Source: an uncultured bacterium
GTDB lineage: Bacteria > Acidobacteriota > Thermoanaerobaculia > Multivoradales > JAHEKO01
Length of the DNA stretch: 64,000 nucleotides
Assembly (NCBI GenBank): GCA_905479655.1
Contig: CAJQNK010000121.1
Coordinates: 14,732 to 78,731, forward strand
Direction of reading: 5' to 3'
Each line of letters starts with the position of its first letter. The first letter of the stretch is position 1. The translations under genes were made by a program, and so were the position numbers. Positions 8,214 through 46,469 of this stretch are shown here, piece after piece. The notes under the pieces are model-generated. The model did no database searches and had not been told where the DNA came from. It saw only the letters and a list, made by a program, of their open reading frames with translations.

Positions 8214-8246
8214 CTCGGGTCTCTCGGGGTCTCGTCGCGGAGGGTC

Positions 8247-9475: not shown

Positions 9476-9495
9476 GAGCTTAACCCGGGAGTTAA
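9476..9495. promoter_or_regulatory. Perfect palindrome GCTTAAC-ccggga-GTTAAGC, candidate HigA-type operator upstream of the toxin gene
   Basis: Inverted repeat seen directly in the sequence, inside the lower-GC intergenic/leader region just before the HigB-like ORF. Confidence 0.4.
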
Positions 9496-9556
9496 GCTAC
9501 GCTTAGTCCGTCTCGGCCATAAGGTCTGGGAGGTGCTAGCCGTGCTGGACGAGAGT

Positions 9557-30372: not shown

Positions 30373-31559
30373 GGGCAGATCTCCCCCCAGTTGGCCGCCG
30401 TCGTCTCGGGTCGCAGGAGACACAGTTTCGAGACCAGGATCTCGGCCTTGACCTCGCCCGGCAGGCTCGCTCCCAGCTCGAAGAGTGTCTGGAGCTCCTC
30501 GACGATCTGCCGGTCGGTGGCCGACGGCTCGGCTCCCAGGGCCGACGCCTGCTCCCAGTCGTGGAGGGCGACGAAGCAGGCGTTGCGGACCTTCGGGTCG
30601 AGACCGGCCTGGAACTCCAGCTCGAGCAGCAGGCTCCGCAGCTCGGCCAGCGCCGGCCCCTGCACGTCCAGCAGGCCCAGGGAGAGGAGGTTGGTGCCCC
30701 GGACGATCTCGATCGGCGACTGGACGATCTGCCGGTCGGCGGTGAGCTGCGCGAGGAGGATCTTGGTCTTGCCGATGATCTCGCTCACCGACAGCTTGCC
30801 GTCGCCGTTCGCGTCGGCTGCGGGGTCGCGGAGCGTCTGGAGCAGGCTGTAGGTGAAGATGCCGTGACCCAGCTCCGGAAACTCGTAGGCCTCGGCCCGC
30901 GCGGCGCCGAGAACCACGAGGCCCGAACCGATCTGCTCCTCCACCGTCCGTTCGAAGCTCGCCTCGGGGAAGGCGTGGCGGGTGAGCCGCACGTCGCCCT
31001 CTCCGGCGCGGCTCGTGCCCGTGCCCGAGACCACGCTCTCGACGTCCCCGCTGTGGCAGTGGTCGAGGATCAGGACCTTGCGGTCCGCCGGGATGTCGCG
31101 CAGGTACTCCATCAGGTGGCTCAGGCGGATGCCGTCCACCGCGAGCTCGGCGATCGACGCGGTATGAGTGAGCCAGTAGGTGTGCTCGCCGGCGGTCAGG
31201 TCCTGCACCCCGTGGCCGGCGAAGTAGATCAGCACGGTGTCCTGTTGCCGGGCCCTTCTCGCCATTCGCACCAGCTCGCGGACGATGCGCCTGCGGGTCG
31301 CCTCGTCGTCGATCGCCGTCGCCACCTCCCAGCCCTGGTCCTCGAGGAGCTCCGCCATCTGCCGCGCGTCCGGTACCGCGAAGTCGAGCTCCGGCACGCC
31401 CTCGAGCTCCGCGAGGTAGGTGTTGATGCCGATGACCAGCGCGTAGCGCACCGGCGTCAGGTCCTCGGGTTGGGCCCGGACCCCGCTCGTGACGCCGCCG
31501 CCGACCAGGGCGATCGCGACGCCCCAGCGGGCGAGAGCGGAGAGGCGCCCTCGGCTCAC
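30369..31559 (-). CDS. Secreted caspase-domain (peptidase C14, orthocaspase-like) protein; GTG start at 31559
   Basis: Signal peptide (LSALARWGVAIALVGGGVTSGVRAQ). Catalytic dyad motifs 'VLIYFAGHGVQ' and 'VLILDHCHSGD'. 4-bp overlaps with both neighbouring genes. Confidence 0.8.
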   Translation of the reverse strand: MSRGRLSALARWGVAIALVGGGVTSGVRAQPEDLTPVRYALVIGINTYLAELEGVPELDFAVPDARQMAELLEDQGWEVATAIDDEATRRRIVRELVRMARRARQQDTVLIYFAGHGVQDLTAGEHTYWLTHTASIAELAVDGIRLSHLMEYLRDIPADRKVLILDHCHSGDVESVVSGTGTSRAGEGDVRLTRHAFPEASFERTVEEQIGSGLVVLGAARAEAYEFPELGHGIFTYSLLQTLRDPAADANGDGKLSVSEIIGKTKILLAQLTADRQIVQSPIEIVRGTNLLSLGLLDVQGPALAELRSLLLELEFQAGLDPKVRNACFVALHDWEQASALGAEPSATDRQIVEELQTLFELGASLPGEVKAEILVSKLCLLRPETTAANWGEICP

Positions 31560-34500
31560 GGGAGGGACGCCCGGAGGTCGGAGGAGAGGTCGCGCGAGCG
31601 GAGCCGTTCGCGGATCTCCTCCCAGGAGTCCGCGCTCCGGTTCAGCCCCGCGACGACGGCGTCGAAGGTGGCGGCCAGGAGCTCGTCGGTGGCGTAATGG
31701 TAGGCCACCTCCGCCTCGTAGACCGCCACCTCCTCGAGGTCGGTGCCTTCGTCGAGTCCGAAGAGGAGTCGGTAGTCGGCCTCCGCCGCGTCGCCGGCGG
31801 GACCCGGAGGGTAGAGCGAGCGCCACAGGGGCAGATCCACGATCGACTCGGCGTCGCGGGCGGCGCCGCGCGAGACGGCGACCGCGGGCAGTGGCGCCTC
31901 CAGGAGCCGCGCGGCGTCCAGGATGCCCGCGCCGTAGCGCTCCTCGTCCCAGGTCGCGTCGTCGCCGCAGTCCGCGCTCGCGGGGACTTTGTCCCCCCCC
32001 GGCTGCCAGGCCGTCTCGCGGGCCAGGAGCCGGAACGCGCGGGTCAGCTCGCCGGCGTCGCGCAGGACCTCGAAGTCCGGGTCGCCCCGGTGGCGGGCGA
32101 ACCAGAGGGCGGCGACGCCCGCCGTGGAGGAGGTCGCGTAGGTGGTCCCCGTTCCCATCCCCGTGACCCAGTCGTCCCCGTCGATAGTCGCTCGCCAGAC
32201 CGACTCGCCGGTGGCGGCGAAGTCCACCGCCGAGCCCCGGGAGCTATGGGCCCACGGCCGGCAGCCCACGTTGACCGCGGCCACGGCGATCACCGAGTCG
32301 AAGCGCGCCGGCCAGACGACGGTGCGCACGTAGTTGCCGGCGGCCGCGATGATCAGGTAGCCGCGCCGCTCGGCCGTCCGGACGGCCTTCCACAGCCGCC
32401 AGCTCGGCACCCCGCCCATGGCGATCGAGGCCAGGTCGGTGGCGACGCCGACCCGGGAGCGGTCGTCGCCCGCGAGGTCGAGGATGGCCTGGCTCATCCG
32501 CTCGGTGCTGAAGTTGATCACCGAGCTGTTGACCCGCAAGGGCACCAGCCGGGCGCCCCGCGCGACACCGGTGGGGCACTGCCTCTCGCCGTCCTCGTCA
32601 TCGAGCTGACAGCCGCTGGGCGAGACGATGGCGCTGCCGCTCCCGGTACCGTGGGCCGGGTTGTCCAGCGGCCGGTGCTTCACCCGCTCGTCCAGGGGGT
32701 CCTTGCGGTCGCGGGAGTAGTCCCAGCCGACCTCGACCCAGAGGGGGTCGTCGCCCGCGGGGTCGAGCAGCTCGGGGTGCGGCAGGTAGCCGGTGTCGGG
32801 GTGGGCGACGACCACACCCGCGGCCTCGGCGCCCTCCACGGCGCCGTGGGCGCGCAGAGCGGCCCAGGCCTCGGGCACCCGCAGGGTGCGGTGGCTCCAG
32901 AGGACGTCCGCGGCCGCCCGCTCGTCGTCGCCGGCGCCACCCGATCCGCGGGAGCCGGCGGCGTTCGGGTCGGGCGCGCTCTGCGAGCGGGGAATCGCGG
33001 CCTCCAGGACCGGCTCGGCGCGCCGGGCGCCCCACCTCTCCCGCTCGCGGTAGGCCTCCTGGAAGGCGCGTCCGACCGAGATCTCGCCGGCGTTCCCGGA
33101 CCGTTCGGCCGCGGTGCTCAGGACGACGACGGTGGAGTCGCCCGTGCCGGATGCCGCCGCGTCTCGGGCGCCACCGGCCGAGCGCACGCTCTCGGCGGCC
33201 GCCCGGGCCGCCGCCGGGTCGTCGAAGTGGAGGGCCACCCCCTCGCTGGCGACCTCGGACCGGTCGACGCGCACGGCCCGATGGACGACGGCCCAGTCGT
33301 CGACGACGACCGGCGCGCCGTGGCGGGTGAGGCCCTGGGCGGAGAGCCGCAGGAAGCGACCGAGCGCGTCCTCGTCGCCCCGGGTCTCCGGCACCGCCCC
33401 CCGTGCCGCCGGAGGGAGCGCGAAGAAGCCCGGGTCGAGCTCCCGGGTCGCGGCGATCATCTTGTACCGGTCGGTCGAGCTCGCCAGCTCGGGCGGCAGG
33501 AACGTCCTCACGAACACGGTGTCGCTACGGCCGGGCGCGATGGCCTCCCGGACCTGGCCCTGGGGGTAGACGAGCTGGTCGCCGCCGTCGGACCAGAGTC
33601 CCACCACCACCGCCCAGACCTCCCGGTCGGAGCGGTTGGTCAACGTGAGCTGGAGCCGGGTCCCGGGGGTCACGCTCTCCGGCACGGGCTCGCCGTCGGG
33701 ATCGTCGGCGAGGGAGATCTCCAGGTCGACGTCCAGGGCCGAGGCGGGGTTGCCGAGATTGAGCAACGCGTGCCAGCGACCCCAACGGGCGAGCTGCGCC
33801 TCCAGCTGTTCCAGAGCGTCGGGGTGCGCCGCGGGGACGTCCCCGAGGATGTCGAGGTCACGTCCCTCGAGGAGGTAGCGGTCGCCTTCGCGGCGTACCC
33901 GGATCTGCGCATCGACCCGCTCCGCCACCCGCTCCATCGACTCGAAGCCGTCCACGACGGCCTTCAGCGGCTCCAGGCCCGGGTCGTCGCCGACGTGGAC
34001 CGTGACCCGGTCGACCCTCGGGACGATCTCGTCGAGGACGGCCCGGGTGTGGGGTCCGACCGTGCCCTCGAGCACCTCGACCTCGGACTCGAAGGCCGCC
34101 GCCGAGACGACGCGCACGGTGGCGACCGCCGGCACGGAGCCGTCGAACTCGCGGGTGCCCTGCGGAAAGACCCGCAGCTCGGAGCCCGGCGCCACGCCGT
34201 AGGCCCGTCCCGCCGACAGGGTGGCCCGCTCCGTGCCGTCGCCCACCGGCTGGACCGGCACGAAGGCCCGGGGCCGTGCCACCTCCACGCCGAACAGCTC
34301 CTGGTCGATCCCGGTGCCTTCGATCTGGGGCGTCTGCGAGGGGAAGCGCTGGGAGACGTCGGAGCGCACCGGCTCCATGACGTCACGGTAGGTCGCGCCC
34401 GGCGACGCCTTCTGCAGCGCCCGGGCCAGGAACCAGGTCATGGCGCCGTGGCGGCGATCGTCGAACCGCGTCTCGTTCGAGAGCTGGTTGGCGCGACACC

Positions 34501-35179
34501 CCGAGATCAGGACGTAGCCGGCGCCCAGCGCGCGGAAGTCGTCCGGCCCCTCCACCGCGCGGCCCGCCCCGGGGTCCGGCGGCGGTGGCGGGCGCAGGTC
34601 CGGCGGTACCTGGCGCGGCACGGTGCCCGCCTCGGCCGCCCGCGCGGCGCTGCCGGAGTGACAGGAGTCGAGGATGAAGGTCACGTGGGGCGTCTTGGCG
34701 GCCAGCTCGGCCATGAGCCGGTTGATCTCGTCGTCGCGCAGGTCGCGCACGTCGCCTACCCGGGAGTCGTGGGGGACCAGGCTCTCGTCCCAGCCGTCGG
34801 GCTCGTCGCCCGAGTCGTCGAGCATCTGGGAGCCGTGCCCGCTGTAGTGGAGGACGACGACGTCGCCCGCCTCGGTCGGCTCGATGAGGCTCGTGCGGAT
34901 CGCGTCGAGGATGCCCTGCCGGGTCGCCTCGGCGTCGCGCAGGACGCGGACGTTCTCCGGTGGGAAGTCGAAGTCCCCCACCAGGACCGTCCGCATGAGC
35001 TCGACGTCGTTACCGCAGCCGCGCAGGTCCGAGAGTCCGGGCGCGAGGTAGTCGTCGATGCCGATCAGCAAGGCCCGGCGGGCGGCGCCCGCCGCCGGGG
35101 CCAGAGCGAGGAACAGGAGGAGGGTGGTGGCCGCTGCCAGCGCGGTCGGCAGGACGGCGGGTCGGGCTCCCTGGGTCAT
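31556..35179 (-). CDS. Secreted caspase (C14) - subtilisin-like (S8) protease fusion protein
   Basis: Signal peptide. N-terminal caspase motifs 'VVLHYSGHGSQ' and 'FILDSCHSGS'. C-terminal S8 motifs 'HGTGSGSAIVS' (His box) and 'GTGTTYATSSTAGVAAL' (Ser box). Confidence 0.8.
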   Translation of the reverse strand: MTQGARPAVLPTALAAATTLLLFLALAPAAGAARRALLIGIDDYLAPGLSDLRGCGNDVELMRTVLVGDFDFPPENVRVLRDAEATRQGILDAIRTSLIEPTEAGDVVVLHYSGHGSQMLDDSGDEPDGWDESLVPHDSRVGDVRDLRDDEINRLMAELAAKTPHVTFILDSCHSGSAARAAEAGTVPRQVPPDLRPPPPPDPGAGRAVEGPDDFRALGAGYVLISGCRANQLSNETRFDDRRHGAMTWFLARALQKASPGATYRDVMEPVRSDVSQRFPSQTPQIEGTGIDQELFGVEVARPRAFVPVQPVGDGTERATLSAGRAYGVAPGSELRVFPQGTREFDGSVPAVATVRVVSAAAFESEVEVLEGTVGPHTRAVLDEIVPRVDRVTVHVGDDPGLEPLKAVVDGFESMERVAERVDAQIRVRREGDRYLLEGRDLDILGDVPAAHPDALEQLEAQLARWGRWHALLNLGNPASALDVDLEISLADDPDGEPVPESVTPGTRLQLTLTNRSDREVWAVVVGLWSDGGDQLVYPQGQVREAIAPGRSDTVFVRTFLPPELASSTDRYKMIAATRELDPGFFALPPAARGAVPETRGDEDALGRFLRLSAQGLTRHGAPVVVDDWAVVHRAVRVDRSEVASEGVALHFDDPAAARAAAESVRSAGGARDAAASGTGDSTVVVLSTAAERSGNAGEISVGRAFQEAYRERERWGARRAEPVLEAAIPRSQSAPDPNAAGSRGSGGAGDDERAAADVLWSHRTLRVPEAWAALRAHGAVEGAEAAGVVVAHPDTGYLPHPELLDPAGDDPLWVEVGWDYSRDRKDPLDERVKHRPLDNPAHGTGSGSAIVSPSGCQLDDEDGERQCPTGVARGARLVPLRVNSSVINFSTERMSQAILDLAGDDRSRVGVATDLASIAMGGVPSWRLWKAVRTAERRGYLIIAAAGNYVRTVVWPARFDSVIAVAAVNVGCRPWAHSSRGSAVDFAATGESVWRATIDGDDWVTGMGTGTTYATSSTAGVAALWFARHRGDPDFEVLRDAGELTRAFRLLARETAWQPGGDKVPASADCGDDATWDEERYGAGILDAARLLEAPLPAVAVSRGAARDAESIVDLPLWRSLYPPGPAGDAAEADYRLLFGLDEGTDLEEVAVYEAEVAYHYATDELLAATFDAVVAGLNRSADSWEEIRERLRSRDLSSDLRASLP

Positions 35180-35402: not shown

Positions 35403-37178
35403 TCAGACGGTGATCGTCTCGCCCGAGAACGTCGTGAGCGAGAAGCCGGCGAAGCTCTCCTGGTAGATCGCTCTCTCCTCGCGCAGGAGGCGCAGCGCGA
35501 TGGCCTCTCCGAGGAGGTTCCCCTCCCGGTCGTCGGAGCGCCAGTGGATCCCCGACATGTCCCGGCCCCACGTGAGGTTGTAGGCCAGCTTGTTGAGCTC
35601 GCCGCCGAGTGTCAGCTCCGGTCCGTCGACCCCCGTGATGTAGTCGACCAGCGCGGAGCCGTCGGGCGTCGGCTTCTTGGGCGACGGGAACGGCAACGAC
35701 TCGTCGAACCACGCCTTGAGCACCGTGACGCAGGCGCCCGCGGTGACGGCGTGGCCGGCCGGGAACGACGGATGGGTGGGGCAGCCGACCGGGAAGAGCT
35801 GGGGCAACATCCAGGAGCCGTTGTTGATGCTCAGGCGGGCGTTGTTGATGAGCAGGTTGCGGTCGAAAATGGAACCGAGCGTGATCGTGGCGTTCAACAG
35901 GTCCGAGTGGATCGGATGGCTGACCATGCCGGCGAGCGTCGCGTGCACCCGCGCGGCGTACTCCTCCGGGCGGAGGAACCGGTGGACGAACCACTTCTCG
36001 TACCAGCAGGAGCGCTCGGCCTTGTGGGCCTTGCCCAGAAGCTCGGCCAGGTGGGCGGCGCCGAAAGTCCCGAATCCGAGTTGCCGGCCGGAGTTCTGGT
36101 AGGGGTTGGCCTGATCGTAGCCGGACGCTCCGACCAACTGGTTGAGAATCAGGAAGGCCTTGAAGTAGGCCGAGAAGACCATGTCGCGTCCCGCGACGAA
36201 GCCGAGGGCTCGGGGGTCCGTGACGTAGCGGGACTTCGCCCGGCCCGGCGGCGGAGCCGGAGTGCCCCCCGGGAACCCCCGCTGGGACTCGAGCCACTCG
36301 TCGAAGGTGGTCAGGAAGTCGAACTCCCGCTTGCCCACGGTGACGCGCTGGCCGACCGGCGCCCCGTCGTAGCTGAACCCCTGGAGCAGGAACTGGGAGA
36401 CGAGATAGCCGTCCTGTACGCCCGGGTACTCGACGCGGAAGAGGTCGTTGGCGCGGATCTCGCCGGTCACCGGGTCCCGCGGGCCCCGGTAGCCGGAGAA
36501 CGTGGCCAGCTGCTCGCGGGCCTTGACGGCATCGGGGTGGGCCTCGAAGTCCTGGAAGTTGATGTCGCGCAGGATGGCCATCCAGTAGAGCTCGGCCATC
36601 TCGGCCGCGAGCTCGGCCGAGGCGAAGGCGGGCGGCGGGTTGGCGACGCCGATCGCCGGTGAGTCGGGTCCGTCGATGGAGTAGGCCAGGCCGCCGACGG
36701 GGTTCGCCAGACGCGACCCGCCGCCGGCCGGGACGGTCTCGAAGGCCTCGAACGTCCCGGCGGTGACGGCGGCCAGCAGAGCGTCGTAGGCCGCGGGGTC
36801 GACCTGTCCGAGGTCGTCGTGGGGCAGCGTCTTCGAGAAGTTGCCGATCCGGTTGGAGTAGAGCTCCTCGTCGCCGTTGGTCGCGTGCAGGGGCTCGGGC
36901 AGCGCGAGCTCGGCGTCGGCCGCCGCCACGCGGATGGCGTGGGCCTCGAGCTTACGGTCCTGGAGGTTCGCTCCGTGCGGCGGCGCGGGGGCGGTCGACC
37001 TCGGCGCCGCGGCTGCCGGCAGTCGGCCCGCGATCGCCCCGAGAGAGGCGGCGCCGAGCCCGCCGAGAAGACCCCGGCGGCTCAGTTCCGAGTGCTTGTG
37101 GGCCTCGCGACGAGGGTCGATCGACTTCGCATCGTCAGGGTGCGCCAAAGAACGGATGGGCAGATTCGAGTCCTTCAT
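35403..37178 (-). CDS. Tat-secreted vanadium-dependent haloperoxidase-like protein (PAP2 superfamily)
   Basis: Tat motif 'SRRGLLGGLGAASLGAIAG'. 'KWFVHRFLRPEE', 'CPTHPSFPAGHAVTAG', 'RDMSGIHWRSDD' (R-x5-H-x3-D). Confidence 0.8.
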   Translation of the reverse strand: MKDSNLPIRSLAHPDDAKSIDPRREAHKHSELSRRGLLGGLGAASLGAIAGRLPAAAAPRSTAPAPPHGANLQDRKLEAHAIRVAAADAELALPEPLHATNGDEELYSNRIGNFSKTLPHDDLGQVDPAAYDALLAAVTAGTFEAFETVPAGGGSRLANPVGGLAYSIDGPDSPAIGVANPPPAFASAELAAEMAELYWMAILRDINFQDFEAHPDAVKAREQLATFSGYRGPRDPVTGEIRANDLFRVEYPGVQDGYLVSQFLLQGFSYDGAPVGQRVTVGKREFDFLTTFDEWLESQRGFPGGTPAPPPGRAKSRYVTDPRALGFVAGRDMVFSAYFKAFLILNQLVGASGYDQANPYQNSGRQLGFGTFGAAHLAELLGKAHKAERSCWYEKWFVHRFLRPEEYAARVHATLAGMVSHPIHSDLLNATITLGSIFDRNLLINNARLSINNGSWMLPQLFPVGCPTHPSFPAGHAVTAGACVTVLKAWFDESLPFPSPKKPTPDGSALVDYITGVDGPELTLGGELNKLAYNLTWGRDMSGIHWRSDDREGNLLGEAIALRLLREERAIYQESFAGFSLTTFSGETITV

Positions 37179-37417
37179 GGAAGCCTACCTCCAGGTAGGG
37201 GGGATGGAGCGCCACAGGCCACCGCGCTCCGAGCACGAGAAAGGAATCAAGAAATACGTAGAAAATGATATCAGAAAGGAGAGCGTTCGGGGTCCCCTCG
37301 TTGCGGGCGACCGCCGGAGCAGTTCGGTTCCTGTCCGATGCCGCGGAATCCGGAGGCGGAGGGGCAAGGAGATCGAGCGGCGGAGCGTAGGCCCGGCGCC
37401 GGAACGGCGGTGGGTCT

Positions 37418-39553
37418 CTACGAACCGGGCGCGGTCGCCGCGAGCGCGCGCAGGAGCTCCGGGAGCTCGCCGGCGTCCTGGAAGCGGTCTTCGGGGCGCT
37501 TCGCGAGGAGGCGGCCCAGCGCCTCGTCCAGCCCGGGCGGCGCAGGCTGCCCACCGGGCAGGCGGAGTGGCGTCGGGTCGTCGTGGAGGACCTGGTAGAG
37601 GATGGCGTAGCGGCCCGGGCCCGAGAACGGCAGGTCCCCGGAGAGCATCTGGTAGAGCAGGACTCCCAGGGACCAGAGGTCGCTGGTCGGGGCCGCTACG
37701 CGCCCCCGGATCTGTTCGGGAGACATGTAGGCCGGGGTCCCGAGGCTCGCGTCGGCTTGTGTGATGCGGGACTCCTCCGCCATGAGCGCCAAACCGAAGT
37801 CGACGATGACGGGCCGGTCCTCCGACCGGAGGATGATGTTCGACGGCTTGATGTCCCGATGGACGATGCCGGCGCGGTGCGCCGCGTCCAGCGCCTCGGC
37901 GATCCGCGCGGCGATGGTCAGCGCACGGCCGGCGGGCAGGGGGCCGCCCTCCAGCACCTTGTTGAGGTCCCGGCCCTCGTAGTACGGGATCACCAGGAAC
38001 ATCCGACCGTCGGCCGTCTCTCCCAGGTCGTGGATGGCGCAGAGCCCCGGATGACCCAGGCGCGAGGCGGCCATCGCCTCCCGCAGCAGGCGGGTCCGCG
38101 CGAGCTCGTCCGGGGCGGGGGTGGGGGCCAGGAATTTGAGGGCGACGGTGCGCTGGAGGTGGAGGTCGCGCGCCAGGAAGACCTCGCCCATGCCGCCTCC
38201 GCCGAGGCGCTCGACGATTTCGTAGCGCGAGAGGCTTCGGCCCAGGATGGTGCCGGAAGGCGCCGACGCCGGCATCGGCGGCCGCTCCACGACGGCGGTC
38301 GGTTCCAGGAAGTCGTCCGCGCTCGCGTGGTGCTGCAGGAGCGACGAGACGAGCCGGTGGAGATCCGGGTCGTCCCCGCACTCGGTCGCCAGGAAGTCGT
38401 CGACCTGGGAGGGCTCCCGCCGGAGGGCCTCGCCGAAGGTCTCGCGCGCCTTGTCCCACAGGCGCCGCTCGGTCGAGGAGTCGGTTGGGGAGGGTGCCGC
38501 CGGGCCGCCTCGTTGGCGGAGGAAGTCCCGGAGGAAGCGGTGGCTCACGGCCAGAGTGCCGTCCTCCAGGCGCCGCAGGAGGCCCAGCGCCTCGAGCCTC
38601 CGGGGGCCCGCGCCGAATCCCTCCCCCGCGCCCCCTCGGGGGTCGTGGGTGAGTCTCTCCTCCTCTTGCTCCGAGAGTGGCCTCCCGCCGCGCGAGAGCT
38701 CGACCAGGAGCTCGCGCTCGCTCTCGGCGAGCAGGTCGAAGTCCACCGTGAACAGGTACTGAACCATCGGCTCGCTGTCCACCGCCTCGATGGCCTTCGA
38801 CAGGTCACCCAACTGCGAGAGCCGCTTCGCCAGGAGCTGGAGGAGATAGGGATGGCCGGCGCAGACGTCCGCCACCTCTTCGGCGAGCTCGGCGGACCAG
38901 TCCGGGCGGTCGCGGGCTCGCCGAGTCTGGAGGACGCACTCGACGGCGGCGACTCGTTCCAGCCCCGCGAGGTAGACGGGGGGGCCGAAGCCGTGGAGGA
39001 AGGGGGAGGTGGCGCTCCGCTGGTGGCGCAGCTCCCACAGCCGCACGGTCGAGGCCATGACGGTCCGGAGGTGGGAGCCTCCATGGATCAGCTTGCGGAG
39101 CTTCGGGAGCAGGCCGGCCTCGCGCTGCGAGACCTCGAGCAGGACCTCCGGCTCATCGATCAGCAGGAGCAACCGCCGATCCAGCCGGGCGACCTGCCGG
39201 GTCAGCCGGCGGAGGCAGTGGAACAGGTCGTCGTCGAGAACGTCGTCGATGCCGATCCCGAGCTCCGCCAGGTCTTCCTCCGCGTCCAGCAGCGCCTCGC
39301 GGACCTCCTGGTGGAGATCGGCCAGGTCGGTCGCGCCCTCCAGGTTCCAGAACAGCGGCAGATAGGGGAGACCGGGACGCTGCCGGGCGAGGTGCTCGAG
39401 CTGGCGCAGGAAGGAGGTCTTGCCGATCCGGCGCGAGCCCAGGACCCAGACCGCGTCGCTCATGTCCTCCATCGTCTCCGCCAGCTCGGCGTCCCGACCG
39501 TAGAAGGACTCCCCCCGGACCCACTGCCCGACGACGAACGGTGACGGGCTCAC
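37418..39553 (-). CDS. STAND/AAA_16-type ATPase fused to a C-terminal Ser/Thr protein kinase; GTG start at 39553 overlapping the upstream stop
   Basis: 'FYGRDAELAE...VLGSRRIGKTSFL' (Walker A), 'LLLIDEPE' (Walker B). Kinase 'RYEIVERLGGGGMGEVFLA...ALK', 'HRDIKPSNIIL', 'DFG', 'GTPAYMSPE'. Confidence 0.8.
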   Translation of the reverse strand: MSPSPFVVGQWVRGESFYGRDAELAETMEDMSDAVWVLGSRRIGKTSFLRQLEHLARQRPGLPYLPLFWNLEGATDLADLHQEVREALLDAEEDLAELGIGIDDVLDDDLFHCLRRLTRQVARLDRRLLLLIDEPEVLLEVSQREAGLLPKLRKLIHGGSHLRTVMASTVRLWELRHQRSATSPFLHGFGPPVYLAGLERVAAVECVLQTRRARDRPDWSAELAEEVADVCAGHPYLLQLLAKRLSQLGDLSKAIEAVDSEPMVQYLFTVDFDLLAESERELLVELSRGGRPLSEQEEERLTHDPRGGAGEGFGAGPRRLEALGLLRRLEDGTLAVSHRFLRDFLRQRGGPAAPSPTDSSTERRLWDKARETFGEALRREPSQVDDFLATECGDDPDLHRLVSSLLQHHASADDFLEPTAVVERPPMPASAPSGTILGRSLSRYEIVERLGGGGMGEVFLARDLHLQRTVALKFLAPTPAPDELARTRLLREAMAASRLGHPGLCAIHDLGETADGRMFLVIPYYEGRDLNKVLEGGPLPAGRALTIAARIAEALDAAHRAGIVHRDIKPSNIILRSEDRPVIVDFGLALMAEESRITQADASLGTPAYMSPEQIRGRVAAPTSDLWSLGVLLYQMLSGDLPFSGPGRYAILYQVLHDDPTPLRLPGGQPAPPGLDEALGRLLAKRPEDRFQDAGELPELLRALAATAPGS

Positions 39554-42060
39554 GCCTCGCCCCCGCCCGGCTCGCGCCGGACGGCCTCCAGGTCCTCGAT
39601 CGTTAGCACGCGGCGTCCGAGGCGGTGGCCGCGGTCGACCAGGGCGCGGCACAGACGCTGGATCTCGTAGGGGCGGCCCGAGGTCGCCTCGACGATCCTC
39701 TGCACCACCCGATCATCGACGCGGAAGAGCCCGCGCATCGGCTGGCGGACCAGTCTCTCAGCCTCCGATGCCGGCAGCGGCCGGACCGCGATCCCCTCGA
39801 AGAAGTTGAACCACGGGCTCCCCTCGAGCTCCCAGTCGCGTCGGATCTCGACGCCGGAGACGATCGCTCGCAGGCGTTGCGCGAAGGAGCGCATGAAGAG
39901 GGCGCGGAGCTTCTGGTTGATCCGCGGGTCGTAGCCGTTGAGCTCGTCGATCTCGTCGATGAGCAGGACCAGCCGGGGCTCGCGGTCGGACCGTTCGTCC
40001 AGGCGGCGGAGGACCGCTCGGAGGTCGGTGACGAGGTCCGTGTGGCCGTACCCCGGGTCCGAGGGCGGGTGGCACGGCGCCAGCCCCTCGAGCGTCGGGC
40101 CGAGCTGGTGGAAGACCTCCGCCGCCAGGGTGGCGAAGAGCCGCTCCCCCGGCGTCCCCTGCAGGTCCACGTAGACCGGATGGAAAAGGTACTCTGGATC
40201 GTCGATCTCCCGGAGCCGCTCCCGCAGGTGGTGCTGGATCGAGGTCTTGCCGATCCTCCTCTCCCCGTGGAGCAGGAGACTGTTGTTCGGCACCGCGGCC
40301 ACCACCTCCCGGATCAGATCCTCGCGACCGAAGAACTGCTCGCGGCCGAAGACCGGGGCTCCCGCGACGTACGGGTTGGGCCGGCGAGCCAGCGCCCGCG
40401 CCTCCCGCCGGCGACGAACGGCCAGGCCGAGACCCCCGGTCGCGAGCGAGAGGACGAGGACGCCGCCGAGGATCCAGGGCCGGCGCCACGGCGGGGCGCG
40501 GTACAGGAAGGAGTACTCGGAGACCGCCTCCAGGTCTCCGTCGTCGGCCGCCACGATGCGGTAGGTGGACGCTCCGGCGGCGAGTTCCACGTCGAGGTGG
40601 AACTGGGCGACGAAGACGTCCCCGTGCTGGTCCCCACGGGAGGCCACGGGGACCGGTTCGCCGCGCGGGTCCAGGGCGGACAGTCGCACGGGGCCCTCGT
40701 CGATCACCACGCCGACGATCCGCTCGGCGGGGTGGTCGACGACCTGCCGGACCGAGCCGTCCTCCATCGCCGCGCGGAGGTCGGTGAAGCGGATCGCCGG
40801 CGGCAGGTTGCCGTCGCCTCCCCCGTGGCGCACGAGCCTTCGGGCGATGCCGCGGTACGCGGTGGCGAGCTGGGCGATGGCCCGGGTGTCGTCCGGGTCG
40901 ATGGCCAGAGCGAGATTCACCGCGGCGAGCGCCGCGTCGTGGTCACCCGCGGCGAGCGCGACGGCGGCGGAGTCGACGAGGCGGTCGAGCTCGACCCGGC
41001 GCATCGCCGTCTGCCGTCGCTCGCTCTCCGCCTCCACCAGGGATCGACGCAGCGCAACGGCCTCCTCGTGATCCGGCTCGACCGCCAGGATGCCGCGCAG
41101 GAGATCCAGGGCCGCCGCCGGGCGCCCGTCCCGCGCGGCCGAGCGCGCGGCGTCGAGCCGATCCTCGATCATCGGAGCCGGGTCGGCCGCGGTCGCCTCG
41201 GGTCGATCGTCCCTTCGCTCGGCCGAGATCGCCTCGAGGGCTGTCGCCAGGGGGCCCTCGACGTCGGCTCGGGGGTCGAGAGCCCGGGCCTGCTCGAAAG
41301 CCGCAGCGGCCTCTCGGGGCTTCCCCTCGTCCAGCAGACGACGGCCGTCCCGCGCGAGCTCCGCGGCGGTATCGATGCGCTGCCTCTCGAGCTGTTCCGC
41401 GGCCAGGAGGTCGCGGAGCTCGGTCTCGAGCGCGACGGCGCCGGCGTCCGCTGGTTCGAGCGCGAGGACGTCCGCGAGCTCCGTCAGGGCCTCTTCCACC
41501 CGCCCCTGGTCGCGCAGCGATCGGACCCGGGCCAGGACCTCGGCGGTGATCTCTTCACCCACCTTCCGCTGCGCGCTCTCGATCTCCCGGATGCGCTCCC
41601 GGGCGCGCCCGCGGAACCGCTCGAGCTGCGCCAGGTCCGGCGGGGAGGAGGCGATGGCGCCGAGCCGCTCCTCGGTCTCGAACGCCCGGAGCGCGGCCGC
41701 CGGATCGTCCAGCTCCAGGTAGGCGATACCGAGCTTCAGGTAGGGAAAGTAGGAGGTGAACTGCATTCCGTAGGTCCGCGCGTTCGCGCTGGAGTCGCCC
41801 TTGCGCGCGACCGCCTCGTTGAGCTCTTCGACGGCACCCTCCCACTCCTCCCGCCCGAGTTTCTGCTTCGCTCGCTGGTAGTGGACGTACCAGGTGTCGG
41901 CGGCCGACGGTTGAGACAGGCCCAGGAGGAGCGCGGCGACGAGGGTGAGGAGCGTCCCCCACGACCGACGCCGGGCGCGGCCCCCGGGTCGCGGCCGACC
42001 GAGGCGGACGCCGTACTCGGCTCCCTCTGGGTCGGCGTCGTGTCGCGAGCGGCGGCTCAT
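39550..42060 (-). CDS. Membrane-anchored protein: signal peptide + periplasmic TPR repeats + TM segment + cytoplasmic STAND/AAA_16-type ATPase
   Basis: Signal peptide (LLTLVAALLLGLSQPSAA). TPR-like repeats. TM segment 'ILGGVLVLSLATGGLGLAV'. 'FFGREDLIREV...LLHGERRIGKTS' (Walker A), 'LVLLIDEIDE' (Walker B). Paralogous to the ATPase domain of the downstream kinase gene. Confidence 0.75.
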   Translation of the reverse strand: MSRRSRHDADPEGAEYGVRLGRPRPGGRARRRSWGTLLTLVAALLLGLSQPSAADTWYVHYQRAKQKLGREEWEGAVEELNEAVARKGDSSANARTYGMQFTSYFPYLKLGIAYLELDDPAAALRAFETEERLGAIASSPPDLAQLERFRGRARERIREIESAQRKVGEEITAEVLARVRSLRDQGRVEEALTELADVLALEPADAGAVALETELRDLLAAEQLERQRIDTAAELARDGRRLLDEGKPREAAAAFEQARALDPRADVEGPLATALEAISAERRDDRPEATAADPAPMIEDRLDAARSAARDGRPAAALDLLRGILAVEPDHEEAVALRRSLVEAESERRQTAMRRVELDRLVDSAAVALAAGDHDAALAAVNLALAIDPDDTRAIAQLATAYRGIARRLVRHGGGDGNLPPAIRFTDLRAAMEDGSVRQVVDHPAERIVGVVIDEGPVRLSALDPRGEPVPVASRGDQHGDVFVAQFHLDVELAAGASTYRIVAADDGDLEAVSEYSFLYRAPPWRRPWILGGVLVLSLATGGLGLAVRRRREARALARRPNPYVAGAPVFGREQFFGREDLIREVVAAVPNNSLLLHGERRIGKTSIQHHLRERLREIDDPEYLFHPVYVDLQGTPGERLFATLAAEVFHQLGPTLEGLAPCHPPSDPGYGHTDLVTDLRAVLRRLDERSDREPRLVLLIDEIDELNGYDPRINQKLRALFMRSFAQRLRAIVSGVEIRRDWELEGSPWFNFFEGIAVRPLPASEAERLVRQPMRGLFRVDDRVVQRIVEATSGRPYEIQRLCRALVDRGHRLGRRVLTIEDLEAVRREPGGGEA

Positions 42061-42329
42061 TCGGTGGTTCCGTCGGCCCGACGGTCCTCCCCGTCGGCAT
42101 CGGGTTCGCAGGGGGCCGAGTCGTCTTCCGGCCAGGGGTGAATCCCGTCGTCCGCGCGGCCGTGGGGTAAGTTGACAGCGGTTCGGCCCCCGCATATTCT
42201 CACCGCACTTCGAAGTTTGTCATCTGATTCGAGCCGGGACCCGAAGTCCGGCCCTCCTCCGATCCGCCAGGTTGGGAAGGTCCAGCACGGCCGCGTCGCT
42301 CTCGGCGCCGTCGACCCGGCGGAGACGGA

Positions 42330-43806
42330 GATGCTCGACAGAGAATCGAATCCCAGAAGGAGTTCGGCCTCTCGGGGCCGTGGAGTCCGGTCGGGAGCTC
42401 GATGGCTGTCGTGGGTTCTCGCAGCGTATCTCCTCTCGGCCTTCCTCCTCTCGGCCTTCCTCCTCTCCGCGGCCCACGCCCAGACGAACGACGAGGCCTT
42501 CGGCGAGCTGCGCTTCAACCTCGAGGCCCCCGGCGCTCGAAGCCTGGCCATGGGCGGGGCCTTCGTAGGCCTCGCGGACGACGCGACCGCGGCCTTCGCC
42601 AACCCGGCGGGCCTGCTGTGGCTGATGGAGCCCGAGGTCTCGCTCGAGGGCAGGTTCTCCAGAGCCCGCACCCGTTTCCTGGACGGCGGTCGGATCGAGT
42701 GCGAGCCCTCCGGGATCGGGCTGGACACGGCGGACCGGCCGTTGTTCTCGGAGTTCGAGGACGAGTCGGTCGCCCTCGGCTTCCTCTCCTACGCTCGGCC
42801 GGCCCGCTCCCGGCGCTGGGCCTTCTCCGTGTTCGCCCACCAGCCGGCCACGGTCGACCTGGCGGTGCGGAGCGAGGGGGCCTTCAACGGGGAGGTCCGG
42901 GTGCGGCCGGACGGCTCCGTCACGAGCGCCCGGATCGCCCCGATCCTCGGCGCCGTCGACATCGACATCCGCAGTCTCGGCGTCGCGCTCGCGTTGCGCG
43001 CCCGGGAGGGACTGTGGCTGGGCATGGCCCTCGCGCGTCACGAGATGACGCTGACGGCGTCGACGCGGCGCTTCGACCCGCGCCTCGAGGGGGACGGCTT
43101 CGGTCCGTCGCAGTACAGCCCGGAAAGCGAGTTCCTGCGCCGTGAGGCGACCGGCGACGACCACGACCTGACGCTCACGGCCGGCGTCCTCTGGCGACCC
43201 GGCGACGGCGACATGACGCTCGGGCTCGTCTACCGACGGGGGGCGGAATTCGCGATGAGCTCCCGGTTCACCTGGGGTCCCCTGGCCGTCGCCCTCGGCG
43301 GCGACGACCCGGAGGAGGCGGCGGCCCTGTCCGGCGCGACCGGTTTTCGGACCCCGTCGGTGCTGGGCCTCGGCGTCTCGTGGCGGGCGAGCGATCGGTT
43401 CCTCGTGTCGGTCGAGTTGGACCGGGTCGAGTTCTCCCGACTCGAGCCCCGCAGGAACGTCCTGCTGAGCGTGCTGCGCCGGGACGGAGTCGAGCTGGCG
43501 GACTTCCGGGTCGAAGACGTCCTCGAGCCCCGACTCGGGTTCGAGTACGTGTTCCTGTCTCCGTCGCCCGTGTCGCTGGCCGTGCGCTGGGGAGCCTGGC
43601 TCGAGCCGGATCACGGACTTCGCTTCGAGGGGCCCACCGAGGGCAACGAGGACCTGATGGCCCGGTTCCGCGGTGGGGACGAGGCTCTGCACGGGACCCT
43701 GGGCCTGGGCGTCGTCTGGGGAGGCGGCCGGCGCCAGGTCGATCTCGCCGTGGACGTGGCGGAGACGGGCGAGGTCGCGACGCTCTCCTGCGTGGTGCGT
43801 TTCTGA
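42330..43806 (+). CDS. FadL/TodX-family outer-membrane beta-barrel transporter
   Basis: Signal peptide. Hallmark 'SLAMGGAFVGLADDATAAFANPAGL'. C-terminal aromatic residue (...CVVRF). Confidence 0.75.
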
Positions 43807-44429
43807 TGACAGGTCTCGACGCACGGCGGGGGGGGTTCGCGGCGGCCGACCTGGAGATCACCGAGATCCTCGAGCGCTGGAGCGACGGCGACGAGGAGGC
43901 CCTCGATCTGCTGATCCCGCGGGTCTACGAGCAGCTCCACCGGATCGCCTCCCGGCGCCTGAGCCTGGAGGCGGCCGAGTCACTCCAGACGACGGGCCTG
44001 GTCCACGAGGTCTACCTCCGCCTCGTGGGTCAGCGGCGGGCCCAGTGGGAGAGCCGCGGCCACTTCTTCGCCATCGCCGCGCGGATGATGCGCCGCCTCC
44101 TGGTCGATCGGGCCCGACGCCGCCACGCCGCCAAGCGGGAGCCGCCTCCCGCGGAGGAGTTCCCGTTCCCGATGGTCAGCACTCCCGACATCGACCTGCT
44201 GGCCCTAGACGTGGCGCTCGACGAGCTCGCCTCGCGCTCGCCCCGGCAGGCCCGGGTGGTCGATCTGCGCCACTTCCTGGGCTTGACCATCCGCGAGACG
44301 GCCGATGCTCTCGGGCTCTCCGAACGGTCCGTCGGGCTCGACTGGACGATGGCCCGAGCCTGGTTGCACCAGCGCCTGGCTTCGGCGGGCGAAGGAACCC
44401 CGCAGGAGCCTCGACGAGGCCGTCGGTGA
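43806..44429 (+). CDS. ECF sigma factor (sigma-70 family, TIGR02999-like subgroup)
   Basis: N-terminal 'ITEILERWSDGDEEALDLLIPRVYEQLHRIA'. Region-4 HTH 'LTIRETADALGLSERSV'. ATG overlaps the FadL gene stop (TGATG). Confidence 0.8.
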   Translation: MTGLDARRGGFAAADLEITEILERWSDGDEEALDLLIPRVYEQLHRIASRRLSLEAAESLQTTGLVHEVYLRLVGQRRAQWESRGHFFAIAARMMRRLLVDRARRRHAAKREPPPAEEFPFPMVSTPDIDLLALDVALDELASRSPRQARVVDLRHFLGLTIRETADALGLSERSVGLDWTMARAWLHQRLASAGEGTPQEPRRGRR

Positions 44430-44703
44430 GGCGAACGAGGAGATCCCCCGGCGCGGCGCGCAGGGGCTCGGCCTCGAGAGTGCCGCCACCCGGAACCCGC
44501 CATCCGCGTCTCGAGGGGGCCGATCTGTGCGAGCGATCGTGAGAGTATAGAGGCGGAACCGACACCGAAACCGTCGGGGCGGGTGTCCTTTGGCGAGGGC
44601 TTCTCCGAGAGCCGCGAAGGATCCACCGGTTCGGCGCATCCAATCCGTAGAGGGGCGACCAGCACCCGGCGATCGGCCGTCACGCGGAGCCCCGGGAGAG
44701 ACC

Positions 44704-45369
44704 ATGACCGCCGCCTGGCGCAAGAAGGGGAGTGGACCGCGGGCCGAAAAGGCTCTGGTGCGGGCTCTGCTCGCCGGCGACGAGGCGGCCTTCGATACGC
44801 TCGTGGAAGAATACGTGCCCCCGATCTACCGCTATGCGCTGCGCCGGACCGGCGACCGGGAGACGGCCCGTGACCTCACGCAGACGACGATCTGCAAGGT
44901 CATCGCCAAGCTGCCCGGTTTCCGCGGCGAGGCCGGTCTCGGGACCTGGCTCTTCGCCTGCTGTCGCAACGAGATCGCCATGCACTTCCGGCGCCGGTCG
45001 AGCGCCGGCATCGAGGTGCCCTGGGCGCCGACGGAAGCCCGCGGAGACGAGCCGTCGGGTGTGCCGATGGTGCCGTGCTCCGCCGACGGCCCGGAGGAGA
45101 GCTTCCTGCGGGGGGAGCGCACGGCCCTCGTCCATCAGGCGTTGGACCAGCTCCCCGGCCACTACGGCAGGGCGCTCGAGTGGAAGTACATCGAAGGCCT
45201 GCCGGTGCGGGAGATCGCCCGCCGACTGGAGCTGGGAGAGAAGGCGGCTGAGTCGCTGCTCACCCGGGCGCGGGAGGCCTTCCGCGGTGGCTACCGCCGG
45301 CTCGTCGACGGCGCCCCGGACGGTTCCGGGCACGCTCCGGCCGCCGCTCTTCTGAGGACGACATCGTGA
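44704..45369 (+). CDS. ECF sigma factor (RpoE-like)
   Basis: Region 2 'ETARDLTQTTICKV', region 4 'LPVREIARRLELGEKAAESLLTRAR'. GGGAGAG RBS. Confidence 0.8.
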   Translation: MTAAWRKKGSGPRAEKALVRALLAGDEAAFDTLVEEYVPPIYRYALRRTGDRETARDLTQTTICKVIAKLPGFRGEAGLGTWLFACCRNEIAMHFRRRSSAGIEVPWAPTEARGDEPSGVPMVPCSADGPEESFLRGERTALVHQALDQLPGHYGRALEWKYIEGLPVREIARRLELGEKAAESLLTRAREAFRGGYRRLVDGAPDGSGHAPAAALLRTTS

Positions 45370-46406
45370 CCGACTCCCGCTCCCCCGACCGCCGCCCTCT
45401 CCTGGGGCCCGAGGGGCCCGCGGATCCGGACCGCGAGGTGCGCGAGCTCCTTCGCTCGGCGGGACCCCGGCTGGAGATGCGACCCGAGGATCTCGACATC
45501 GTGAAGCGGGCGGCGCGGGGCGAGTGGCGGAGGCTCGTCGACGAGCGGCCGCCGAAGCGCGGGTGGAGCCGGCGACCGCTCCTGGCCGCTGCCGCCGCTG
45601 CCGTCGCCGCCGTGGGGCTCGCCTGGTGGCTCCTGGCGGCCGGCGGACCGCCCGAGTCCGTCGCTGTCGTGGAGGTTCTCGACGGCTCCGGCGCCCTGGC
45701 GGGGTCGGACCCGCTGGAACTGGGCGATCCGGTCCTCGACGGCGCCTCGATCGCGGTGCCCGTCGGCGGCCGTCCCCTCGGGTTGCGCTGGCGCGACGGA
45801 CGCTCGGTCCGCCTGGCCCCGGGGAGTCGGATGACCGTCGCCTCGCCCTGGCGTCTCGAGTTGACGGTGGGCTCCCTCTACGTGGACACGCCGCCCTCCG
45901 TCGCGCCCGGGCGTCCGTTCACGGTGGCGACGCCCGCCGGCCTGGTGGTCGAGCGGGGCACCCAGTTCGAGGTCAATCTGGCGACTGTCGGAGCGCCGCT
46001 CCGGGTCCGGGTCCGGGAGGGAGTCGTGGAGGTGGACACCGCCGGTGGCGACGTGGCGGTCACCGCCGGTCAACAGTGGGTCCTCGGCCCGGACGGCGAG
46101 GGGTCGATCGAGTCCGTGGATCCCTGGGACGACTCCTGGTCCTGGGTGCTGCGCGCCGCGCCGACCCCGACGGTCGAGGGCTCGGACCTCGCCTCGTTCC
46201 TCGAGGAGGAGTGCCGCGAGGCCGGTTGGCGCCTGGTCTGGGAGAGCGCCGAGCTGGCCGCCGAGGCGGCCACGGTGGAGCTCCACGGCTCGGTCGACGG
46301 GATGACGCCGGACCAGGCCGTGGCGGTGATCCTGGCGGGCAGCCGTCTCGACTACCGGCTCGAAGAGGGGCGTCTGTTCGTCGGCAACGCCGGCGCCGGG
46401 CCGTAG
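45366..46406 (+). CDS. FecR-family transmembrane anti-sigma factor (GTG start overlapping the sigma gene stop)
   Basis: TM 'LLAAAAAAVAAVGLAWWLLAA'. FecR-domain motifs 'RLAPGSRMTV', 'VVERGTQFEV', 'VREGVVEV'. Confidence 0.7.
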   Translation: MTDSRSPDRRPLLGPEGPADPDREVRELLRSAGPRLEMRPEDLDIVKRAARGEWRRLVDERPPKRGWSRRPLLAAAAAAVAAVGLAWWLLAAGGPPESVAVVEVLDGSGALAGSDPLELGDPVLDGASIAVPVGGRPLGLRWRDGRSVRLAPGSRMTVASPWRLELTVGSLYVDTPPSVAPGRPFTVATPAGLVVERGTQFEVNLATVGAPLRVRVREGVVEVDTAGGDVAVTAGQQWVLGPDGEGSIESVDPWDDSWSWVLRAAPTPTVEGSDLASFLEEECREAGWRLVWESAELAAEAATVELHGSVDGMTPDQAVAVILAGSRLDYRLEEGRLFVGNAGAGP

Positions 46407-46469
46407 CTCGGCCGGCGTCGGCGAGCGTCGCTTCCGTCGGACCTCCCGCCGTGGGGACCCCCCCCTCGG

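Follow-up and report, generated by a model that had tools for sequence, protein, structure and literature searches.

Signalling across the bacterial cell envelope is explained by two-component systems, pairs of anti-sigma factors and extracytoplasmic function (ECF) sigma factors, receptor kinases, chemoreceptors and ToxR-like one-component proteins. Among the described systems closest to the locus considered here are those built on ECF43-type sigma factors, which remain inactive until a Hanks-type kinase phosphorylates a threonine at the position of the DAED motif (PMC8999054; PMC13147305). The sigma factor EcfP of V. parahaemolyticus, which reads STTA at this position and is phosphorylated on the second threonine, is activated by the Hanks kinase PknT (PMC8999054), and a further documented case is that of EcfK and PknS in X. 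citri, where PknS has a periplasmic tetratricopeptide repeat (TPR) sensor (PMC13147305). Here a locus is described that looks like an undescribed way of passing signals across the envelope. It lies in a stretch of 64,000 nucleotides from an uncultured bacterium of the Acidobacteriota (GenBank assembly GCA_905479655.1, contig CAJQNK010000121.1, positions 14,732 to 78,731 of the forward strand), which as a whole is termed the window and to which coordinates refer unless another locus is named. The core of the locus is a pair of overlapping genes, A and B, which encode a membrane-bound ATPase with a periplasmic TPR region and a soluble ATPase fused to a Hanks-type Ser/Thr kinase. On balance, we favour a reading of A as the receptor and of B as the transducer of a conserved trans-envelope module, resembling a STAND/NLR-type ATPase that has been split into two chains.

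Two overlapping genes for paralogous ATPases

Long open reading frames (ORFs) are found on both strands of the window because its GC content is about 72%, and genes were chosen by third-position GC (GC3). The ORFs that lie opposite A and B translate incoherently and were rejected as high-GC artefacts. The gene pair is laid out as follows:

39550..42060, minus strand: gene A, a single-pass membrane receptor-ATPase of 836 aa (ORF with GC3 of 0.89; Pfam TPR models, AAA_16 and AAA_22)
37418..39553, minus strand: gene B, a cytoplasmic ATPase-kinase of 711 aa (ORF with GC3 of 0.89; no hydrophobic span)
39550..39553, minus strand: GTGA, in which the GTG start codon of B overlaps the TGA stop codon of A by 4 nt

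The overlap is indicative of translational coupling of A and B. Entries identical to A (P0001, 836 aa) and to B (P0061) are present in a public protein collection.

The sequence-only reading of this DNA had proposed that the two genes encode paralogous ATPases, each with an F-[YF]-GR-[DE] signature and an RRIGKTS Walker A motif. Sequence comparison confirms the two modules as true paralogues: BLASTP aligns residues 561-811 of A with residues 3-249 of B at 30% identity over 264 aa (E 2e-8), and hhalign, when given the alignments of the two families, returns a probability of 99.5% (E 7.8e-23) over a span that runs from NPYVAGAPV in A and PFVVGQWV in B to the PY..Q motif of the lid. The signatures are FFGRED and GERRIGKTS in A, and FYGRDA and GSRRIGKTS in B, and they belong to a longer series of motifs common to both modules, namely P[FY]V[VA]G, F[FY]GR, RRIGKTS, DLQG, hhhhDE.EEL, SP[FW] and PY..Q. 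Neither family shows any variation in the Walker A lysine or in the Walker B Asp-Glu pair, so that ATP is probably bound or hydrolysed by the two modules alike. The same reading had also described A as membrane-anchored with a periplasmic TPR array, B as carrying an intact Hanks-type kinase, the genes as overlapping by 4 bp, and the two proteins as the possible input and output of one system; the anatomy of both proteins and the recurrence of the pair and its overlap in other genomes agree with this description, and the interchangeable outputs found on the module of B reinforce its last point. The heteromeric signalling ATPase that it further suggested, from stoichiometric co-expression, is a putative assembly.

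Conservation of the gene pair

Full-length homologues of A fall into about 60 clusters at 40-46% identity, the nearest homologues being found in Acidobacteriota at no more than 47% identity. In species-representative genomes 216 loci with relatives of A were found, and the locus counts given below refer to the best 80 of these 216. The 80 loci are distributed over the Acidobacteriota (Thermoanaerobaculia, Holophagae, Vicinamibacteria, Sulfomarinibacteraceae and Polarisedimenticolia) and extend beyond that phylum to the Gammaproteobacteria (Woeseiaceae) and Binatia. A B-type module is encoded near A in 76 of the 80; in 57 it immediately follows A on the same strand, and 30 of these have a kinase after the module. 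In 37 of these 57 the two genes overlap by the 4 nt ATGA or GTGA, the rest being separated by gaps of at most 13 nt except for two outliers at -17 and -277 nt. The reverse search gave the same picture: when three B-kinase genes were chosen independently of the search with A, an A-type gene was adjacent or convergent in all three. Alternative arrangements also occur, in which a B protein with a winged helix-turn-helix (wHTH) domain is followed by A and by a plain B', or A is followed by an outer-membrane protein (OMP) gene and then by B.

The A-B pair is thus a conserved and functionally linked module and not a local oddity. A chance adjacency of two tandem paralogues, without any functional coupling, is scarcely credible; duplicated genes do often stay neighbours, but 30% identity denotes an ancient duplication, and yet adjacency, gene order and the 4-nt overlap have been kept across classes of the Acidobacteriota and in Gammaproteobacteria.

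One locus differs in the receptor gene itself. At L083 (5743-7985) the A-type gene, which stands upstream of a B-kinase gene, consists of two ORFs, one for a 288-aa TPR part and one for a 452-aa ATPase part, and its neighbours are IS66 transposase genes and a gene for a TIR-domain protein. A frameshift, decay of the copy or a true split of the receptor may account for this.

The membrane-anchored ATPase A, a probable receptor

The regions of A, from its N-terminus to its C-terminus, are the following (AlphaFold2 is abbreviated as AF2):

41899..42060, minus strand: aa 1-54, basic n-region and hydrophobic h-region ending in PSAA|D (sequence, family alignment, AF2)
40828..41898, minus strand: aa 55-411, periplasmic TPR/long-helix region (Pfam TPR_2, TPR_14 and TPR_19; AF2; Foldseek)
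40486..40803, minus strand: aa 420-525, membrane-proximal periplasmic beta-sandwich opening with a conserved NLPPAIRF (AF2 strands, invariant residues)
40414..40479, minus strand: aa 528-549, transmembrane helix followed on the cytoplasmic side by the basic stretch RRRREARALARR (Kyte-Doolittle, AF2)
39553..40383, minus strand: aa 560-836, cytoplasmic P-loop ATPase with nucleotide-binding domain and helical lid, without a winged helix (Pfam, alignment, AF2, Foldseek)

The N-terminus has 10 Lys/Arg residues within 33 aa, followed by a hydrophobic core of 15 residues and by PSAA|D. In an alignment of 16 family members, to which the statements on conservation in A refer, this N-terminal part is variable and conservation begins immediately past PSAA|D, at D55-x-W57-Y58 (D-x-W-Y-x-H-Y). 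This pattern fits a cleaved signal peptide, which residues 1-54 probably constitute; they might alternatively act as a signal anchor, and the AF2 model places a helix at 29-47 with a low predicted local distance difference test score (pLDDT). The region that follows matches Pfam TPR_2 (E 6e-11) and other TPR models, TPR_14 and TPR_19 among them, is modelled as all-helical from residue 57 to 411, and is matched by Foldseek to TPR superhelices (P58IPK, consensus TPR proteins and the TPR domain of OGT). Its head, residues 55-135 (WY.HY...YFPYLKLGIAY...FETEERLG), is the best-conserved periplasmic part of the protein. Between the TPR region and the membrane, AF2 models strands at 422-520 with a pLDDT of about 80-90; no Pfam model matches this beta-sandwich (aa 420-525), in which P420, P421, A422, F425 and R429 are invariant.

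Residues 528-549 give the Kyte-Doolittle maximum of 2.11 and are the sole span above 1.6; AF2 extends the helix over 528-556, and 7 of the 23 residues past the span, RRRREARALARR, are Lys or Arg. The topology was deduced from Kyte-Doolittle hydropathy, charge, family conservation, AF2 and Foldseek. Together these lines of evidence support a single-pass inner-membrane protein with a periplasmic ectodomain and a cytoplasmic ATPase.

The ATPase of A has an AAA+ fold in the AF2 model (580-830), and its Foldseek matches are to the AAA+ proteins RuvB, Orc1/Cdc6 and the Rpt subunits. Its motifs are FFGRED, the Walker A motif GERRIGKTS at aa 599, the Walker B motif LLIDE at aa 699 and SPWFNFFE at aa 748, and the Walker A, Walker B and SPW motifs are invariant. 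At the level of sequence the module passes two broad catch-all Pfam models marginally, AAA_16 with 33.9 bits (cut-off 32.6) and AAA_22 with 31.6 bits (cut-off 27), and stays below the cut-offs of nSTAND6 (16 bits against 27.7) and of ATPase_2, PF01637 (13.9 bits against 33.2). No chain in the PDB was significantly matched by sequence, the best being 2qen (E 0.006).

The ATPase-kinase B

B has no hydrophobic span and is a soluble cytoplasmic protein with three regions:

38519..39553, minus strand: aa 1-345, ATPase module with nucleotide-binding domain, helical lid and winged helix (AF2, Foldseek, motifs)
38225..38518, minus strand: aa 346-443, linker with a conserved helical motif, ERRLWDKARETFGEAL...CGDDPDLHRLVSSLLQHH (sequence)
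37484..38224, minus strand: aa 444-690, Hanks-type Ser/Thr kinase domain (Pkinase, E 1.6e-42, 146 bits; motifs)

The AF2 model of residues 1-345 (pLDDT 91.7, predicted template-modelling score (pTM) 0.90) shows the nucleotide-binding domain, lid and winged helix in this order. The module carries FYGRDA, the Walker A motif GSRRIGKTS at aa 39, the Walker B motif LLLLIDE at aa 128 and TSPFLHGF at aa 182, the last three of which are invariant in 82 homologues. Its closest structural matches in Foldseek are the archaeal PF01637 ATPases 2qen (E 5e-12) and 2fna (E 9e-10), with template-modelling (TM) scores of about 0.6; NLR resistosomes, ORC/Cdc6, a TPR-STAND protein, CED-4, MalT and Avs3 follow at lower ranks, the STAND/NLR-type matches including 6mfv, 4m9s, 8bob and 8dgc.

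The label 'AAA_16/STAND-like', which the sequence-only reading had attached to both ATPases, is a loose one. The fold of B is STAND-like and A reaches AAA_16 marginally, but for B the models remain below threshold: AAA_16 gives 23.6 bits (cut-off 32.6), AAA_22 25.1 bits (27), nSTAND1 18.3 bits (27.1), nSTAND2 15.7 bits (24) and ATPase_2, PF01637, 13.7 bits (33.2), and the closest fold is that of a PF01637-type ATPase. None of the curated STAND models (NB-ARC, NACHT and nSTAND1-6) matches A or B above its cut-off, NCBIfam and PADLOC hold no model for either ATPase module, PADLOC gives no NLR or Avs match, and a sequence comparison of the B module with PDB chains found no significant relative.

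The kinase domain has a complete set of catalytic motifs (GGGGMGEV at 451, VALK at 470, HRDIKPSN at 565, DFG at 585, SPE at 611 and DLWSLG at 625), and B is the only protein with a detectable Hanks kinase in the window. When the C-terminal extensions of B proteins were compared all against all by BLAST, those of the kinase type and those of the sigma type clustered together, which is compatible with a linker element common to both types.

Exchangeable outputs on the module of B

The part of B that precedes the kinase (aa 1-430 was used as the query) is found in combination with a range of regulatory domains. When 1.84 billion cluster representatives were searched exhaustively, 1,208 related clusters were returned at E<=1e-3, 120 of them at E<=1e-30. 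The module is fused to a C-terminal kinase, to a C-terminal ECF sigma factor (PF07638), to a kinase and then an ECF sigma factor, to an N-terminal OmpR/CadC-type wHTH (Trans_reg_C), or to a cyclase and a wHTH, and it also occurs with no partner. Pfam annotation of 102 of the best representatives of the family gave 17 kinases, 13 Trans_reg_C domains, 3-4 sigma factors and a few proteins with FHA, SpoIIE, SIR2, HEPN or CHAT domains; 19 of the 102 match PF01637 at E<1e-5. The chains in which ATPase and sigma factor, or ATPase, kinase and ECF sigma factor (four loci), are joined are Rosetta-stone fusions. A constant module with swappable regulatory domains, next to a TPR receptor, is the expected look of an input/output pair.

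At several loci (L011/L081, L016, L019 and L082) A is accompanied by both a B-sigma fusion and a separate B-kinase fusion. The same module is then present on sensor, substrate and enzyme alike, a distribution that is in keeping with co-assembly and points to the ATPase module as a docking or assembly element. These loci also bear on a rather unlikely alternative, in which the genes are linked and no hetero-oligomer forms: A and B would each homo-oligomerise, A and the OMP encoded nearby would make up a machine or scaffold in the envelope that serves transport, localisation or the handling of OMPs, and B would be a co-expressed regulator or be regulated via its winged helix or linker. A conserved operon structure proves a functional link only, AAA+/STAND modules commonly homo-oligomerise, the two modules are not equivalent in that B has a winged helix and A has none, and the OMP genes, often present in multiple copies around A, hint at a cargo or structural role. 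Nevertheless, the identified fusion partners of the B module are all signalling or regulatory domains with no transport component among them, the presence of three module-bearing proteins (sensor, kinase and sigma factor) at one locus is hard to explain unless the module is a shared docking element, and motifs not seen in the Pfam or PDB matches are common to the two modules. Assembly of A with B is the reading preferred here.

Further variation has been observed among B proteins and their neighbours. In Woeseiaceae (L001, 6215-8029 on the minus strand and 8217-9812 on the plus strand; likewise L004, L005, L008 and L010) B begins with a CadC-like wHTH, continues with the ATPase module and ends in a membrane hairpin (RRNVVRVGIAYFVVAWLLLQ...), and is divergent from A with a gene for a beta-rich lipoprotein in between. 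A small gene for a STAS_2 (anti-anti-sigma-like) protein stands beside the B-kinase gene in L081 (15160-15495) and L082 (7381-7749), both of which have A and a B-sigma fusion, and its product may be an additional phospho-regulated partner. Among the more distant relatives within the 1,208 clusters there are fusions to FHA, SpoIIE phosphatase, SIR2_2, HEPN_Swt1 and CHAT, and in one such relative of 1874 aa (P0235) the module is found at aa 1318-1608; part of the family may have conflict or effector roles rather than a role in transcription control.

The outer-membrane protein and the sigma factor

Two further likely components, an OMP and an ECF43-type sigma factor, are encoded just beyond the coordinates covered by the sequence-only reading. 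Upstream of A, on the opposite strand, lies a second transcription unit:

42061..42330, no strand: divergent intergenic region of 270 bp with back-to-back sigma-70-like promoter matches (consensus matches only)
42172-42200, plus strand: promoter match TTGACA-17-TATTCT (sigma-70-like consensus only)
42223-42196, minus strand: promoter match ATGACA-16-GAGAAT (sigma-70-like consensus only)
42331..43806, plus strand: FadL/PorV-like outer-membrane beta-barrel protein (signal peptide, N-terminal motif GARSLAMGGAF...NPAGL, C-terminal F)
43806..44429, plus strand: ECF sigma factor, PF07638/TIGR02999 type, whose region 2.2 reads QTTG for DAED (Sigma70_ECF, E 8.5e-45; TIGR02999, 188 bits, cut-off 126)

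The two promoter matches, one per strand, are the only such sites in the 7.6 kb from 37000 to 44600, where shuffled sequence leads one to expect 0.1; a search for an intrinsic terminator between gene B and the next gene found none. The OMP, which has weak matches to Toluene_X (E 8e-5) and to PorV, overlaps the ECF sigma gene in the sequence TGATG, and the two are predicted to be co-transcribed, divergently from A-B. The longest ORF for the OMP opens at TTG 42172, which is the first base of the -35-like hexamer TTGACA; judged from the sequence, the ATG at 42331, just ahead of the signal peptide, is the more likely start.

Homologues of the FadL-like OMP are encoded at 63 of the 80 loci. The gene is often present in 2-4 copies, and at 62 loci it lies no more than 5 kb from A. 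At L081 the OMP gene lies in one operon with A and B-sigma, joined by 4-nt overlaps and with a PF03349 match on record. The OMP is probably a third component of the module or its target.

Region 2.2 of the window ECF sigma factor, SLQTTGLVHEVY, lacks the acidic DAED of canonical ECF sigma factors and places a threonine at the phospho-acceptor position, a hallmark of the ECF43 type. When it was aligned with the sigma domains fused to B modules and with RpoE, all of the fused domains were found to read QPTA at the DAED position, as against QTTG in the window protein and STTA in EcfP. The kinase gene B is about 4-6 kb away, across the divergent promoter region. A link between kinase and sigma factor also finds support in the four loci at which ATPase, kinase and ECF sigma factor make up a single chain. 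Because B is the sole kinase in the window it is the best candidate partner of this sigma factor, which is probably its substrate.

A possible route from envelope to regulon

The following mechanism would account for these features. The periplasmic TPR and beta-sandwich ectodomain of A would sense a signal, probably one delivered by or involving the FadL-like OMP, which possibly relays it to the conserved head of A. Signal-dependent clustering or conformational change of A would then lead to ATP-dependent co-assembly of the A and B modules, and co-assembly would concentrate or release the output domain, which is a sigma factor or a wHTH in variant systems. In the window the output would be the Hanks kinase, activated by proximity, which would phosphorylate the ECF43-type sigma factor on the threonine that replaces DAED and so turn its regulon on, a regulon that plausibly includes the OMP-sigma operon. 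An oligomerisation-type switch is proposed because the structural neighbours of the modules (PF01637, ORC/Cdc6 and STAND/NLR proteins) are nucleotide-dependent oligomerising switches.

Several points weigh against this mechanism or parts of it. The modules of A and B are just 30% identical, and each could homo-oligomerise alone. In the AF2 model A lacks a winged helix, the element through which STAND proteins lock the ADP state. The direction of regulation could also be other than proposed, the sequence being compatible with activation by assembly or with sequestration and release in the manner of an anti-sigma factor. Three informative loci (L018, L045 and L077) have A with no detectable B nearby, and the OMP might take no part in signalling and be only a target of regulation. 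Finally, a PF07638-type sigma factor is encoded within about 10 kb in only 10 of the 80 loci, and the free sigma factor of L067 has its own adjacent kinase, so that the step from kinase to sigma factor is not general and is uncertain here.

Neighbouring genes and a possible role in conflict

Downstream of B lie two genes of a different kind. The first (35403-37178, minus strand) encodes a PAP2-like protein of 591 aa with a twin-arginine signal, SRRGLLGGLG, and a weak PAP2/haloperoxidase-like C-terminus (E 7e-4), and is situated between gene B and the second (31556-35179, minus strand), which encodes a secreted caspase-subtilase of 1207 aa with an N-terminal Peptidase_C14 domain (E 4.5e-29) and a C-terminal S8 subtilase domain (E 9e-14). 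This double-protease fusion is unusual and lies 2.2 kb downstream of A-B; a second, weaker caspase-like stretch is found at 30828-31448 (minus strand), just downstream of it. The PAP2-like and caspase-subtilase genes were considered as parts of the system and rejected, since none of the 80 related loci has them, and they are regarded as incidental neighbours.

These genes are of interest for a further alternative, according to which the locus is an NLR/STAND-like conflict system (anti-phage defence or programmed death) whose ATPase pair senses an invader and whose kinase is the effector, possibly together with the caspase-subtilase. We hold this to be very improbable. The fold resembles that of NLRs, CED-4 and Avs and there are weak matches to nSTAND1, nSTAND2 and nSTAND6, distant relatives of the B module carry SIR2, HEPN or CHAT domains, the caspase-S8 fusion lies close by, and the kinase domain matches PADLOC kinase models. 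The PADLOC matches (PD-T4-6 and mad6), however, cover the generic kinase domain only, with neither ATPase matched and no significant match for A at all, and the caspase-S8 and PAP2-like neighbours occur at none of the 80 related loci. The sensor is periplasmic and not cytoplasmic, the GC content has no island signature, the dominant outputs are transcriptional (sigma factor and wHTH) and the conserved neighbour is an OMP.

On the other side of the system a cell-surface-signalling set of the Fec type occupies 44590-49193, with an ECF sigma factor (Sigma70_r2/r4_2; 44590-45369, plus strand), a FecR protein (45366-46406, plus strand) and a TonB-dependent receptor with CarboxypepD_reg (46470-49193, minus strand).

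Comparison with known systems

In the open-access literature that was searched, neither a TPR-ATPase paired with an ATPase-output protein nor an ECF sigma factor fused to an ATPase was found described, which does not prove that the system is unpublished; reviews of ECF sigma factors list no such ATPase-linked regulator, and no curated family for the A-B system was found. The evidence for the system is comparative and structural and is consistent over more than 80 loci. That it is a distinct class of trans-envelope signalling is a real possibility. Tentatively, and with somewhat less confidence than in the roles of A and B themselves, we suggest an undescribed class in which a FadL-like OMP, a TPR receptor and a transducer would be coupled by ATP-dependent hetero-assembly of paralogous STAND-like modules with exchangeable outputs, sensor, kinase and sigma factor docking via the module in some genomes; hetero-assembly would here replace phosphotransfer or regulated proteolysis, and the pair in the window would be the founding example.

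If this is true, the use of matched switch ATPases to couple a receptor to a transducer would be a new coupling principle, and about 1,200 clusters (at 50% identity) that are labelled only 'AAA family ATPase', 'ATP-binding protein' or 'protein kinase' would gain a function. The pair would also exemplify an NLR/STAND-type switch split across two chains and a membrane, which bears on the evolution of NLR-like receptors. For orphan ECF43-type sigma factors, and for many of the soluble Hanks kinases of Acidobacteriota and of marine Woeseiaceae, a route of extracytoplasmic input is suggested, and the natural swapping of outputs makes the module attractive for synthetic signalling.

With the STAND/NLR-type ATPases (MalT, AfsR, PknK, Apaf-1/CED-4 and Avs) the system has in common the switch of P-loop domain, lid and winged helix (in B), a TPR sensor, and effector fusions such as the OmpR-type wHTH, as in AfsR/SARP, and the Ser/Thr kinase, as in PknK. 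The tripartite nucleotide-binding oligomerisation domain of STAND proteins (P-loop, helical domain and winged helix) is present in B, as judged from AF2 and Foldseek, and not in A. Unlike in those proteins, which have repeats, effector and this domain in one chain, sensor and effector are here on two chains, each with its own ATPase module: B has an effector and no repeats, its ATPase being N-terminal to the kinase, whereas A has no effector and its TPRs are periplasmic, across the transmembrane helix from an ATPase that lacks the winged helix. The archaeal PF01637 proteins PAB2304 (2qen) and Sso1545 (2fna), to which the B module is structurally closest and which have the same order of domain, lid and winged helix, differ in being stand-alone proteins of unknown function with neither membrane partner nor output domain.

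The ToxR/CadC-type regulators are similar to the Woeseiaceae variants of B, and not to B of the window, in their N-terminal CadC-like wHTH (NF007540, E 3e-18) and C-terminal membrane hairpin; the Woeseiaceae proteins differ from them in having an ATPase module and in being paired with a separate TPR-ATPase receptor. The FecA-FecR-FecI system is alike in logic only, its three tiers being an outer-membrane protein, an inner-membrane sensor that crosses the membrane once and has a periplasmic domain, and an ECF sigma factor. The parts themselves are not homologous: the OMP is FadL/PorV-like and not a TonB-dependent transducer with an N-terminal signalling domain, domains of the FecR or anti-sigma kind are missing from A, and ATPase modules and a kinase stand in the place of regulated proteolysis.

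The ECF43 pairs PknT-EcfP and PknS-EcfK share with the window a sigma factor without DAED, a threonine at that position and a Ser/Thr kinase nearby (PMC8999054; PMC13147305). In PknS, the kinase, the transmembrane helix and the periplasmic TPR region are in one chain, whereas here TPR sensor and kinase are separate proteins, each with an ATPase module, an arrangement that would add an ATP-dependent step between sensing and the activation of the kinase. By analogy, the system in the window looks like the logic of PknS divided between two chains that paired ATPase modules bring together again.

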